The notes under the pieces were generated by a model, which made no database searches, was not told the origin of the DNA, and saw only the letters and a program-made list of their open reading frames with translations. A stretch of DNA of 61,743 nt from the IMG/VR virus record IMGVR_UViG_3300047560_001038, positions 1 to 61,743 of that record; one strand, given 5' to 3'. The DNA is from a virus (lineage: Duplodnaviria; Caudoviricetes). Position numbers and translations under genes: made by a program. Positions 2,881 through 56,558 of the stretch are shown in pieces (positions within the stretch are counted from its first letter, which is position 1; every line of letters starts with the position of its first letter).

Positions 2881-2980
2881 TGGTATTTGCGTATTTCTTA
2901 AACTCTGATATACTGGTGTAACAACACCTTAACCTATAAGGTGTTTTTCTCTTTATAAAAGAGGAGGAGGTATCTGAAAT

Positions 2981-3676
2981 ATGAAAACAAATCCTAGAGT
3001 AGTAAAGAGCTTTTTAACAAGTTCTATAGTTTCATTTATATTGTTTGGCACTTCATTTTGTGGAGTGTCAAATGCAAATGCAGAGTCTGAAGACTTTAGC
3101 ATTTCTAGGTCAGTCTATAGTGAGGCTGAGGTACGAGAGGCCATCCAGTCTGCGAGGGATGAATACAACGCAGAATATAACAAAATATATAAGCAAGTAG
3201 TTCAAGACGAAATGAACAGAATTGCAGATCCAAACTCAACTCAATCAAAGTTTGTCAAATTTGCATTGCAGTTTGAAGGAACACCATATTGGTATGGGGG
3301 ATCAACTCCATCTGGTTTTGATTGTTCTGGATTTGTAGGATATGTCATTAAGCATGAACTAGGAATTGATGTTAGACACTCTGCTTCTTCACAGATGCAA
3401 TTAGGTGTTAAGGTATCAGATCCACTACCTGGCGATCTTATAGGCTGGGGATGGGGTAATTATTTTCACCACGTTGGTATTTACATTGGCGACGGTAAAG
3501 AAATAGATGCTCTGAATCCATACCGTGATCTATATGTTCGTGATGTAAAAACAATGACAGCATGGATGGGAAAACCAACCTATGTCAGAATAATTGAAAA
3601 GAACAGAAACTTCAATGCAGATAGAATTACAAAAAGAATCATGGATAATGGTTTTGCGTTTACATTTGCACAATAG
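2981..3676 (+). CDS. NlpC/P60 (C40) peptidoglycan endopeptidase with signal peptide
   Basis: GTPYWYGG...GFDCSG and HVGIYIG catalytic motifs; N-terminal signal peptide ending ANA; SD GAGGAGG. Confidence 0.9.
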   Translation: MKTNPRVVKSFLTSSIVSFILFGTSFCGVSNANAESEDFSISRSVYSEAEVREAIQSARDEYNAEYNKIYKQVVQDEMNRIADPNSTQSKFVKFALQFEGTPYWYGGSTPSGFDCSGFVGYVIKHELGIDVRHSASSQMQLGVKVSDPLPGDLIGWGWGNYFHHVGIYIGDGKEIDALNPYRDLYVRDVKTMTAWMGKPTYVRIIEKNRNFNADRITKRIMDNGFAFTFAQ

Positions 3677-3695
3677 TTTCTGATATAATATAAAG

Positions 3696-3752
3696 GACTG
3701 GTGCCTAGATATGTCTCTCATACCCACCGATCTAGGCATCAGTCTTTCTTTA
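3696..3752 (+). ncRNA. Candidate ~55-nt hairpin sRNA (may also serve as the terminator of the NlpC/P60 gene)
   Basis: TGATATAAT at 3681-3689; 15-bp stem with one G-U pair; 19-nt loop; U tract. Confidence 0.55.
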
Positions 3753-3775
3753 ATTAATCGGTGTTATAATTAAGT

Positions 3776-4144
3776 ATGCCATTATCAGAGTTTTTTGGAT
3801 CCGATCCTGCACGTATTGTTTGGAAAATTGTCCGTGGAGACACAGCAACAATTGCAGTAGATTTTCTTAATAACGATGAAACTGGCTTTGACTGCACAGG
3901 ATGGGATTATGCTTCAATTGCATATAATCTCAAGACAGATGAAGAATATGAGCTAGAGGTTTCTGCAGAAGGACACTCAGTTGCAATTACAGCACCAGCA
4001 GATATGACTGCAGAGTGGGGGAGCAACTATGGTCCTGTTGTGGCGGAACTTCTATTCGATCTTCAGGTTGACACAGGATCAGAAATCTGGACACCAGTTG
4101 TTGGAACTATTATTGTTTCTGGTGATGTCGGAGGTAGCCTGTAA
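3776..4144 (+). CDS. Virion structural protein, BppU N-terminal-like Ig fold
   Basis: IVRGDT...FDLQV...GTI pattern; paralog of 12114-12515; leaderless. Confidence 0.55.
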   Translation: MPLSEFFGSDPARIVWKIVRGDTATIAVDFLNNDETGFDCTGWDYASIAYNLKTDEEYELEVSAEGHSVAITAPADMTAEWGSNYGPVVAELLFDLQVDTGSEIWTPVVGTIIVSGDVGGSL

Positions 4145-4260
4145 TGGCTGTCGTAAAAGTATCTGATATGAATACAAGTCGTCCACCACTTGTCAGAGTA
4201 ACCATTGGAAAAACAGTCACTGACTTTAAGAAAACCAATCTATCAAAGATCTATAAATAG
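4144..4260 (+). CDS. 38-aa hypothetical protein (MAVVKVSD...)
   Basis: TAATG coupling to the upstream gene. Confidence 0.55.
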   Translation: MAVVKVSDMNTSRPPLVRVTIGKTVTDFKKTNLSKIYK

Positions 4261-4288
4261 ATTATGATATAATTTTATTGGTGACAAA

Positions 4289-4999
4289 ATGACAGAATCA
4301 ATAGGCGGAGCATACTCAGTAATCATACCATCGCTAGACGATGCTGCTGATATTCAGGTAGCCTTAAAGTACCTTCACTATGGTCAAGAAACTGCTTGGA
4401 CTACAAAGCCAGAAGGAAACACCAGTATTGCTGGATACCTTTATACAATTGAGCAAACACTAGACAACATTACTTCTGTTGGAACAATTACTTCTGGCAC
4501 TTGGAATGGTAGCGTAATTGCTGGTGCTTATGGTGGTACTGGAATTGCAAATACAGGAAAAACTATTACCCTTGGCGGAAACCTACAAACAGGTGCTGCA
4601 TTAAACATTGATACAACATCAGCAGAGAATGACGATGTTCTTGTTTATGATTCTGGAACGTCAACCTGGAAACCAGGTAAGAACAGATCAATCAACGATA
4701 TTCATGAGAATACTGATAACTATACCTTAGCACTTACAGATCAAAATGATCTTGTCAAAATGACAAAATCTGTTGCAGTTACACTTACAGTTCCAAAGAA
4801 CTCGTCTGTTGCATTCCCAATCAGAACAGAAATTAACATTGTACAATCTGGCGATGGTCAGGTGACTATTTCGCCAGTAGATGGAGACGTTACTATTCAC
4901 GGTACTCCAGGACTTAAGCTTCGTGATAAGTGGTCACTTGTTACCCTGATCAAAATTGACACTAACGAATGGATAGCGACAGGAGACCTTGCCTCCTAA
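4289..4999 (+). CDS. Fibre/adaptor protein
   Basis: ITSVGTITSGTWNG and YGGTG fibre motifs; C-terminal domain paralogous to the 14717 protein. Confidence 0.7.
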   Translation: MTESIGGAYSVIIPSLDDAADIQVALKYLHYGQETAWTTKPEGNTSIAGYLYTIEQTLDNITSVGTITSGTWNGSVIAGAYGGTGIANTGKTITLGGNLQTGAALNIDTTSAENDDVLVYDSGTSTWKPGKNRSINDIHENTDNYTLALTDQNDLVKMTKSVAVTLTVPKNSSVAFPIRTEINIVQSGDGQVTISPVDGDVTIHGTPGLKLRDKWSLVTLIKIDTNEWIATGDLAS

Positions 5000-9780: not shown

Positions 9781-9829
9781 CAATTATTGATTTTGTGGTA
9801 TACTAGTTTTCTAGAGAGAAAGCGGTGGT

Positions 9830-10501
9830 ATGACAAAGCCTCACTACAACGTAGTTATTGCTACCCCTGGACGATCAATGGAGAGTCCTTATGTAAAGAG
9901 TTTAGTAGCTACACTTCAATACCTTAATGAAAACGGTATTTCTTCAATTTACCTTAATGAATATTCTTCACAGGTAACTGCTGCACGAGAAGCAACAGCA
10001 ATGAACTCAATGTTCCTAAACATTTTTAATTCAGAGATTGGGTCTGGAGAATTCACATACGACAAGATCATATGGATTGATTCCGACATTTCTTGGACAG
10101 TAACAGATTTTATGCGTCTATATGAATCAGATAAGGAAATTGTTTCTGGAGTATATTTTAATCACACTGGTGTTCCTATGTTTTCTATGCCAGATTGGAA
10201 TATTGGAGATATAGGAATTCTTAGAGAAAATGAAAAACCATTTGAAATTGCAGCAGCAGGTTTCGGATTCATCTGCATGAAGTCTGGAGTATTTGAATCA
10301 TTGTCAAGACCTTGGTTTGAGTCAGCCTTCTCAGAAGTAGAAGATGGTGAAGGAAACAAGGCAGTCGTTCCATTTGGAGAAGACTATTCGTGGTGTACGA
10401 AAGCTGCTTCAGCAGGACATAAACTGTGGTTAGACCCAAGGGTATTGCTGACTCACCACAAGAATGTATCTATTGACGGAAGGATGATCGTAGGTGGATA
10501 A
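9830..10501 (+). CDS. Glycosyltransferase, GT-A fold (GT2-like)
   Basis: VVIATP, WIDSD (DxD), GFGF, GEDxxWC and H motifs. Confidence 0.8.
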   Translation: MTKPHYNVVIATPGRSMESPYVKSLVATLQYLNENGISSIYLNEYSSQVTAAREATAMNSMFLNIFNSEIGSGEFTYDKIIWIDSDISWTVTDFMRLYESDKEIVSGVYFNHTGVPMFSMPDWNIGDIGILRENEKPFEIAAAGFGFICMKSGVFESLSRPWFESAFSEVEDGEGNKAVVPFGEDYSWCTKAASAGHKLWLDPRVLLTHHKNVSIDGRMIVGG

Positions 10502-24666: not shown

Positions 24667-24695
24667 TAAATGATATACTTATACAGGAGGTAGAT

Positions 24696-56258: not shown

Positions 56259-56558
56259 ATGGCAAGACGTAAAGTAGAGTATACTAAAACAGTGATTAAT
56301 GATCCTTTTGAGCGTGTGTACTCAATGCAGTACGAGAACTTCACAATTGAGCGTGGAGATCTAATCAAGGTTACTGGTGAGTATGGTACTCGTTTTAGAT
56401 TTGAATCAATCACAACCAATCCTAAAAACGGTGCGGTATGGGTAGACTGCTTTGAGATGCACCGTGGACAAGTGGGACCATACCGTTCATTCACTATTGA
56501 TCGTGTAAAGCGTATTCCTAAGCGTAGACCAAGAAAGGCTAAGAGCAATGTCGTTTGA
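56259..56558 (+). CDS. Hypothetical protein (SH3-like)
   Basis: ORF in operon; WVDC...RSF...RVK. Confidence 0.65.
   Translation: MARRKVEYTKTVINDPFERVYSMQYENFTIERGDLIKVTGEYGTRFRFESITTNPKNGAVWVDCFEMHRGQVGPYRSFTIDRVKRIPKRRPRKAKSNVV

Follow-up and report, generated by a model that had tools for sequence, protein, structure and literature searches.

In the lambda pR'-tR' system (6S RNA and Q), a promoter and then a terminator head the late genes, and nut/boxB is a hairpin whose loop is conserved and whose stem varies. Lambda oop, P22 sar, and the plasmid countertranscripts are RNAs of 50 to 80 nucleotides (nt) that start at the base of a stem, end at a terminator of their own, and are recognized through a loop. 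Rho-independent terminators close a transcription unit with a stable stem and then a U tract, usually with a loop of approximately 3 to 8 nt whose sequence is not constrained. Cluster A mycobacteriophages (L5, D29, and StarStuff) make abundant noncoding RNAs from a region of approximately 500 bp. In Actinobacteria, according to the account of the 6C small RNA (sRNA) given in PMC6486639, C-rich loops bind G-rich ribosome-binding sites without Hfq or ProQ. Fremin et al. (2023), in the main text of their screen of IMG/VR, report 8495 structured-RNA candidates, 1241 of which have predicted terminators (PMC10690425).

Here we describe a hairpin in a 61.7-kb stretch of viral DNA, the whole of which is referred to below as the window. 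Like the lambda elements, the unit consists of a promoter closely followed by a terminator-type hairpin of conserved loop and variable stem; unlike pR'-tR', it is followed by a gene with its own leaderless promoter and is dispensable in four relatives. Unlike oop, sar, and the countertranscripts, which are antisense to an overlapping gene, it has no conserved gene on the opposite strand. It resembles Rho-independent terminators in closing a transcription unit with a stable stem and then a U tract but differs from them in its conserved loop of 15 to 28 nt and in the promoter that lies 5 to 8 nt before the stem, with the hairpin as the whole predicted transcript. With 6C it shares an exposed C-rich hairpin loop, and its phage relatives carry actinophage hallmarks; unlike 6C, it has one hairpin rather than two or three, its loop core is UA-CCCAC rather than a run of C, and it is phage encoded.

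Searches against known RNA families and phages returned no relative of the unit. No Rfam 15 family reached its gathering threshold in the whole window, and at an E value of ≤10 the window gave only generic microRNA-type hairpin noise far below threshold. An Rfam scan of the loci of eight relatives found nothing at the hairpin, and the 6C model (RF01066) matched none of five records (the window and four complete relatives) at an E value of ≤1. The only CRISPR-DR match scored 12.8 bits against a gathering score of 35 (E = 6.9), which argues against a CRISPR-repeat mimic. Neither positions 2900 to 4400 nor the unit itself matched any of 50,697 GenBank phage records in DNA searches (blastn). The main text of PMC10690425 does not describe the motif, which may nevertheless be an unnamed entry in its supplementary list. 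If the unit is expressed, it would constitute a new RNA family that Rfam 15 lacks.

A promoter box, a hairpin, and a U tract form a compact intergenic unit

The unit lies between a gene for an NlpC/P60 peptidase and a gene for a small immunoglobulin (Ig)-like protein. Its parts and neighbors, by position in the window, are as follows.

2981-3676, plus strand: upstream gene for an NlpC/P60 peptidase of 231 aa (Pfam NLPC_P60, 8.2e-20; PHROG minor tail protein)
3681-3689, plus strand: P1, putative extended -10 promoter box TGATATAAT
3690-3695, plus strand: spacer of 6 nt between the P1 box and the stem
3696-3710, plus strand: 5' arm of the hairpin, GACTGGTGCCTAGAT (sequence and covariation)
3711-3729, plus strand: apical loop of 19 nt, ATGTCTCTCATACCCACCG, with the conserved C-rich core UCUCUCAUACCCAC
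3730-3744, plus strand: 3' arm of the hairpin, ATCTAGGCATCAGTC (sequence and covariation)
3745-3751, plus strand: U tract TTTCTTT, the predicted point of intrinsic termination
3762-3770, plus strand: P2, extended -10 box TGTTATAAT, 5 nt upstream of the ATG at 3776, implying a leaderless mRNA
3776-4144, plus strand: downstream gene for a tail-tip/baseplate Ig-like protein of 122 aa (105 homologues; pLDDT 84.7)

A reading made earlier from the sequence alone (the sequence-only reading) had described a promoter box, a 6-nt spacer, a 15-bp stem, a 19-nt loop, a U tract, and a second promoter box here, and all of these lie where it placed them. Of the inverted repeats found within 60 nt across the window, this hairpin is the longest. 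Its 15-bp stem (3696 to 3710 with 3730 to 3744) contains a single non-Watson-Crick pair, G-T, so that a G-U pair can form on the plus strand only. The plus-strand fold has a free energy of -30.7 kcal/mol (z = -5.45), a value equaled by none of 200 shuffled sequences, and the minus-strand fold is weaker (z = -3.93).

A G+C-containing stem followed immediately by UUUCUUU is what an intrinsic terminator has. The loop departs from the usual terminator pattern in its length (19 nt here and 15 to 28 nt in relatives) and in its invariant CCCAC, and a simple terminator scan missed the hairpin because it admits only loops of 3 to 8 nt. The unit is intergenic in all loci, with no conserved gene opposite it, which sets it apart from cis-antisense RNAs of the oop/sar type; the sole minus-strand open reading frame (ORF) at the unit (3530 to 3739) overlaps the clade-specific NlpC/P60 gene. 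Going by sequence alone, the unit has what a trans-acting sRNA is expected to have, namely, its own promoter, its own terminator, and no coding capacity.

The unit is conserved and linked to a single gene family

Relatives of the locus were collected through the 122-aa protein. It has 105 homologues, and an alignment-based scan yielded 331 viral stretches encoding a relative, from which 80 loci were kept, whereas scans of the viral contigs with a single protein gave no match. A tblastn search of the protein against the 50,697 GenBank phage records also found no match. In 74 of the 80 loci, a hairpin with an ACCC-containing loop lies 22 to 67 nt upstream of the tblastn match to the gene. The other six comprise one locus cut by the end of its contig with the loop still visible, one with only 19 nt of upstream sequence, three with an ordinary hairpin and an unrelated 13-nt loop, and one with a decayed remnant. 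The three loci with the plain hairpin lack an extended -10 box upstream of it, as they lack the conserved loop, and all four loci without the unit (these three and the one with the remnant) retain P2 and the gene.

We built a covariance model on 60 distinct sequences; its E values are rough. The model found one plus-strand copy in each of 75 loci (one of which is truncated where its contig stops) and in the window, where it found nothing else. Five relatives are 95 to 100% complete, and in each of them there is exactly one copy, which is also the only strong promoter-hairpin-T-tract unit in that genome. A separate scan with a 14-nt word from the loop listed 80 loci, many of them chance matches. 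The model recognized 37 of these loci, 5 of which lie on contigs already present in the first set, and in all 37 a member of the gene family begins 14 to 62 nt downstream. The printed flanks of the 37 carry -10 boxes on both sides of the hairpin, except for two that are cut by contig ends. The unit is thus common to more than 100 phage contigs from freshwater metagenomes.

One further copy was seen on L120, a 9153-base scaffold binned with a Beijerinckiaceae metagenome-assembled genome, which has both the 122-aa gene and the complete P1-hairpin-P2 unit. This scaffold is probably a misbinned phage contig and so says nothing of the host.

The stem covaries and is required to pair on the plus strand

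Pairing was counted in a MAFFT alignment that had not been fitted to any structure. Across the 13-pair stem, 92.1% of 772 cells can pair, compared with 32 to 50% when the partners are slid. Both sides have changed in 12 of the 13 pairs, and double changes occupy 134 cells against 26.7 in shuffled alignments, with none of 500 shuffles reaching the observed number. The rows of the alignment are related phages, so these shuffle controls treat them as more independent than they are; this kinship affects neither the slid-partner control nor the count of distinct pair types. RNAalifold, run on its own, recovered 8 pairs, all with compensatory changes. On these comparisons we regard it as settled that the hairpin is not a chance palindrome, and the comparative data speak strongly against an ordinary terminator. 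The sequence-only reading had named loop conservation together with stem covariation in relatives as a check on its proposal, and both are pronounced.

The non-Watson-Crick cells are strongly asymmetric, with 92 G-T or T-G cells and 10 A-C or C-A cells. This excess indicates that only the plus strand needs to pair and points to an RNA made in the direction of the genes. The hairpin finder allowed G-T on the plus strand, which may bias the count slightly; only six loci were left out of it, and in none of those open to assessment is there an intact hairpin bearing the conserved loop. The assignment of the hairpin to the plus strand, which had originally been drawn from the single G-U pair in the window, therefore holds across the relatives.

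The loop has an invariant CCCAC core

The loop is conserved in sequence while varying in length from one relative to another. CCCAC, which lies within a pyrimidine-rich core, is invariant across the 60 distinct sequences, and the U-A that precedes it is nearly so. The commonest form of the core, TCTCTCATACCCAC, occurs in 29 of the 60, and 14, which form one subgroup, carry two copies in the arrangement CCCAC...CCCAC. Conservation of the two uppermost G residues of the 5' arm is at least 90%.

The loop had been proposed to mimic the complement of a Shine-Dalgarno sequence and a start codon. The relatives do not bear out the start codon part, for CAU (CAT in the DNA) is present in 35 of the 60 distinct loops and is replaced or deleted in the other 25. 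The loop core does not match the complement of a canonical GGAGG Shine-Dalgarno sequence. We also considered a coding loop, with an ATG at 3711 followed by 20 codons counted by eye, and rejected it, since the window alone has this ATG and the frame is shifted by indels in its relatives. The loops of different relatives are set apart by single-base indels, which excludes a conserved peptide or reading frame.

P1 lies at the foot of the hairpin, and P2 would produce a leaderless mRNA

The two promoter boxes are conserved along with the hairpin. In P1, the T, A, A, and T positions of the -10 hexamer are invariant in all 60 distinct sequences and the TG is present in 58; the hexamer reads TATAAT in 41 (including one that an alignment gap interrupts) and TATACT in 13. 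The distance from the P1 box to the base of the stem is 5 to 8 nt in 53 of the 60, which would place the start of transcription at the foot of the hairpin, at approximately position 3696. At the other end, 51 of the 60 have at least five T residues among the 8 nt after the stem. The proposal that promoter, hairpin, and U tract form a self-contained unit thus gains from the relatives an invariant -10 box, a TG in nearly every sequence, and a fixed short spacing.

A promoter belonging to the downstream gene had likewise been proposed, and P2 is conserved in all 60 sequences. It is an extended -10 box 5 to 9 nt before an in-frame start in 51 of the 60 and 14 nt before it in one more; in the other eight it is a TATAAT without TG, 10 nt before the ATG. 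With P2 thus 5 to 10 nt from the start in 59 of the 60 and 14 nt from it in the remaining one, the downstream gene should not depend on read-through from P1 as the lambda late genes depend on read-through from pR'. No Shine-Dalgarno-like sequence is visible between the hairpin and the start in the printed regions. Together with the placement of P2, this suggests that the gene is built to be translated only from a leaderless mRNA born at P2, a design that argues against P1 serving it. A role of the hairpin as DNA in relation to P2 was rejected, as the distance between the two varies from 5 to 31 nt.

Boxes of this type recur in the window. TGNTATAMT occurs 17 times against 6.5 expected, and none of 100 shuffled sequences reaches 17, so that these boxes are a real class of signal in this genome. 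Seven boxes of the form TGnTATAAT or TGnTATACT lie 5 to 9 nt before an ATG (3762, 12096, 12831, 20124, and 44165 on the plus strand; 17093 and 1933 on the minus strand). The phage therefore appears to make many leaderless mRNAs from promoters of the host type. The boxes at 24671, 29127, and 2906 are instead followed by a leader with AGGAGG.

The sequence upstream of P1 differs among subclades. In L067, L069, L071, L073, and L076, two direct copies of TGTGGATAA, which we take to be the reverse complement of the DnaA-box consensus, lie approximately 10 to 45 nt upstream of P1. Other subclades have an ATGTCC box at about -35 or repeats resembling GTTAACA or CGTAACA.

The gene upstream of the unit varies, and the gene downstream does not

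Among the 80 loci, an NlpC/P60 gene stands between the conserved upstream gene (the homologue of 2431 to 2700) and the hairpin only in L002 to L008. The conserved upstream homologue is present in 68 of the other 73 loci, and in none of the 73 does an NlpC/P60 gene separate it from the unit. On this comparison, the NlpC/P60 gene is a clade-specific insertion upstream of P1 that left the order of P1, hairpin, P2, and gene intact. Because the upstream gene varies, the hairpin is not merely the terminator of the NlpC/P60 gene; that alternative, which the sequence-only reading had kept in reserve, fails in most relatives, where a different gene lies upstream. In L011, a weak NlpC/P60 match was seen downstream of the unit, on the other strand.

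The NlpC/P60 insertion brings a promoter and a leader hairpin of its own. This second promoter-hairpin-T-tract unit (2906 to 2955) consists of TGATATACT, 8 nt, a 9-bp stem with a 5-nt loop, and finally TTTCTCTTT. It is part of the leader of the NlpC/P60 gene, where GAGGAGGAGG and the ATG come after it. L005, L007, and L008 retain this unit with an altered stem. A GGTGT just upstream of its hairpin could pair with ACACC in the 5' arm and form an alternative structure.

The conserved upstream protein (89 aa; 2431 to 2700) looks by eye like a membrane-anchored coiled coil and has no significant Pfam match. The downstream 122-aa protein, which always accompanies the unit, is modeled with confidence as an Ig-like domain (pLDDT 84.7), and the best structural matches to this model come from chains in the baseplate or tail tip of phages DT57C and T5 (E = 7e-07 to 3e-06). 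A second, distant copy of this protein (24 to 29% identity) is encoded 0.1 to 2.5 kb further downstream in L002 to L010, L021, and L053. On the minus strand, 1982 to 2197 encodes a 71-aa protein (DUF6171, 2.4e-06) that is 42 to 81% identical in most relatives; this gene overlaps the plus-strand ORF 2056 to 2424, which is therefore probably shorter than listed or spurious.

The genomic setting suggests an actinobacterial host

The window was judged to be 57% complete and contains portal, protease, capsid, terminase, and ribonucleotide reductase genes. The plus strand holds 35 of the 39 listed ORFs of at least 150 aa, and the 4 on the minus strand overlap them. The closest cultured relatives of the capsid are from Streptomyces phages, at approximately 45% identity. 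WhiB scored above the Pfam cutoff in all five near-complete relatives and nowhere in the 57%-complete window. Actinobacteria typically have leaderless genes and extended -10 promoters. Together, WhiB in the relatives, the Streptomyces phage kin of the capsid, the leaderless genes, and the extended -10 promoters suggest an actinobacterial host.

In the complete 101,516-base record behind L017 (G001), which has direct terminal repeats, the unit lies 4.9 kb from the end of the genome, measured in the direction of the structural genes. This position is similar to that in the window, where the unit lies 3.7 kb from the start, and the window may therefore begin near a genome end. The terminal position in G001 was the basis for comparing the unit with the noncoding RNAs of Cluster A mycobacteriophages; the two differ in showing no sequence relation (blastn) and in that the unit is a single hairpin.

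No conserved pairing partner was found within the phages

A conserved loop resembling a seed might be expected to have a conserved complement, and this was sought in the window and the five complete relatives. An ungapped complementarity score, applied to both strands, gave nothing above 200 shuffled loops except the antisense of the hairpin itself. RNAduplex, applied to G-rich windows only, gave no site common to homologous positions. Neither GUGGG nor GGUGG occurs in orthologous start regions of at least three of these six genomes. The lack of a shared complementary site in six phage sequences makes a conserved target within the phage unlikely.

The start of a glycosyltransferase gene in the window had been put forward as a target. 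This site (9823 to 9833, at the start at 9830) does pair best of 232 start regions in the window (-14.9 kcal/mol), but its lead over the next nonself site (-13.9) is only 1 kcal/mol, 4% of shuffled loops do as well, and the gene has no tblastn homologue in any of the five complete relatives, all of which carry the hairpin. Two further candidates were rejected. A 17-nt near-complement at 56425 to 56456 (-26 kcal/mol) was judged to be a chance match; relative G003, its frame read by eye, keeps the amino acids there, with seemingly synonymous differences that weaken the pairing to -19.7. A G-rich stretch on the minus strand at 2751 to 2800, which pairs with the loop at -19.8 kcal/mol, has a motif restricted to the subclade of the window.

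The spacer after the 89-aa gene contains a C-rich tract, CCTCTCCCCCCTACCCCCC (2775 to 2793), that is conserved in L002, L004, L007, and L008 and resembles the 6C loop sequence given in PMC6486639. A leftward transcript from the best promoter-like site of the first 12 kb (2832 to 2804 on the minus strand; 11 of 12 matches, with TG) would begin with the complement of this tract, whose duplex with the hairpin loop is the one at -19.8 kcal/mol. Folds of 2728 to 2812 on the plus strand and of 2700 to 2798 on the minus strand were no better than those of shuffled sequences.

Discussion

The reading that we favor, and to which we give about an even chance, is that the unit represents a new family of phage small RNAs in WhiB-encoding actinophage-like viruses, with a hairpin that insulates a leaderless gene in cis and a C-rich loop that acts in trans. 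Host RNA polymerase would start at P1, at approximately 3696, the first base of the stem, transcribe the 15-bp hairpin, and stop at the U tract. The product would be an RNA of approximately 56 nt, little more than a terminator hairpin, that would accumulate. In cis, the hairpin would end all transcription from upstream, and the next gene, which has no Shine-Dalgarno sequence, would be made only as a leaderless mRNA from P2. A terminator-type hairpin persists in loci that have lost the special loop, as would be expected if transcription from upstream had to stop ahead of a leaderless gene, and the invariant promoter at the foot of the stem keeps company with the conserved loop. In trans, the exposed C-rich loop of an abundant RNA would bind a G-rich partner (GUGGG...), by analogy with 6C most likely the ribosome-binding region of a host mRNA. 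A loop of 15 to 28 nt is atypical for an efficient intrinsic terminator, which counts against this reading, and the strict linkage to one gene would equally fit an element acting purely in cis.

Several other explanations account for parts of the evidence. The loop and the conserved AGG/CCU top of the stem could serve as an operator, or as a decoy, to which a protein of the phage or the host binds, such as a pyrimidine-binding factor (Rho, S1, or a KH protein) or a defense protein, so that the RNA would act as a sponge or regulator and not by base pairing. Such protein binding, which we consider rather unlikely, would suit a loop sequence that is conserved while the loop flanks and length vary, the two conserved G residues atop the 5' arm, and the absence of an RNA target in the phages searched; Rho prefers YC, and the loop is rich in YC dinucleotides. 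However, the neighboring 122-aa protein has an Ig-like baseplate fold rather than an RNA-binding one, no candidate protein was identified, and the duplication of CCCAC in 14 of the 60 sequences fits duplication of a seed equally well. A plain terminator or insulator for the upstream genes is quite improbable in our estimation. It would explain a stem and U tract between two transcription units, and the ordinary hairpin at the same place in three relatives suggests that this junction calls for a terminator; neither the P1 box nor the conserved loop would then have an RNA function of its own, and they would reflect, for example, a mutational cold spot or constraints on the terminator. That leaves five invariant and several near-invariant loop positions beside freely covarying stems, where the flanking proteins are only 43 to 69% identical, an invariant -10 box at a fixed short distance upstream, loops of 15 to 28 nt that terminators do not require, and the joint loss of the conserved loop and the extended -10 box in the three loci with a plain hairpin.

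The position of the unit at the head of a long block of codirectional genes (35 of the 39 ORFs of at least 150 aa on the plus strand) and its strict linkage to the first gene of that block recall a promoter-proximal attenuator of a late operon, like lambda pR'-tR' with Q or a nut site. P1 would then be a regulated late promoter whose transcripts stop unless a phage antiterminator recognizes the loop and lets polymerase continue into approximately 58 kb of structural genes. The clade-specific repeated boxes upstream of P1 would be in keeping with this, as would the second promoter-hairpin-T-tract unit before the NlpC/P60 gene, which must be read through. An attenuator is nonetheless decidedly improbable, because the first gene has its own conserved leaderless promoter and no visible Shine-Dalgarno sequence, and read-through RNA would be poorly translated; many more promoter boxes lie inside the block; and the four loci without the unit retain P2 and the gene. 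No antiterminator gene (Q- or N-like) came to notice. Rolling-circle nick sites, too, combine a conserved loop with arms that covary, and the two DnaA-box-like repeats just upstream of P1 in one set of loci are suggestive in the same direction. The hairpin would in that case act in DNA, as a hairpin or cruciform at an origin, nick, or priming site, and the loop would be the sequence recognized or cut. We think this very unlikely, since the excess of G-T over A-C cells means that only the plus strand must pair, the promoter box and T tract frame the unit in the same orientation, and the DnaA-like boxes are limited to one subclade.

A bolder version of the sRNA reading, which we put forward only tentatively and consider less probable than not, is that an entire lineage of freshwater actinophages, both abundant and uncultured, uses an sRNA consisting of nothing but a terminator to reprogram the host through its CCCAC loop, either by pairing with G-rich ribosome-binding sites, in functional mimicry of host sRNAs with C-rich loops such as 6C, or as a decoy for an RNA-binding or defense factor, while its own leaderless structural genes escape. 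If the unit is expressed, it would offer a handle on the interplay of phage and host at the level of RNA in hosts that are mostly uncultured. Its compact layout, in which a promoter, a hairpin RNA, a U tract, a second promoter, and a leaderless gene follow one another, makes it easy to test in vitro, and the same layout helps in annotating leaderless genes and host-type promoters in these phages.
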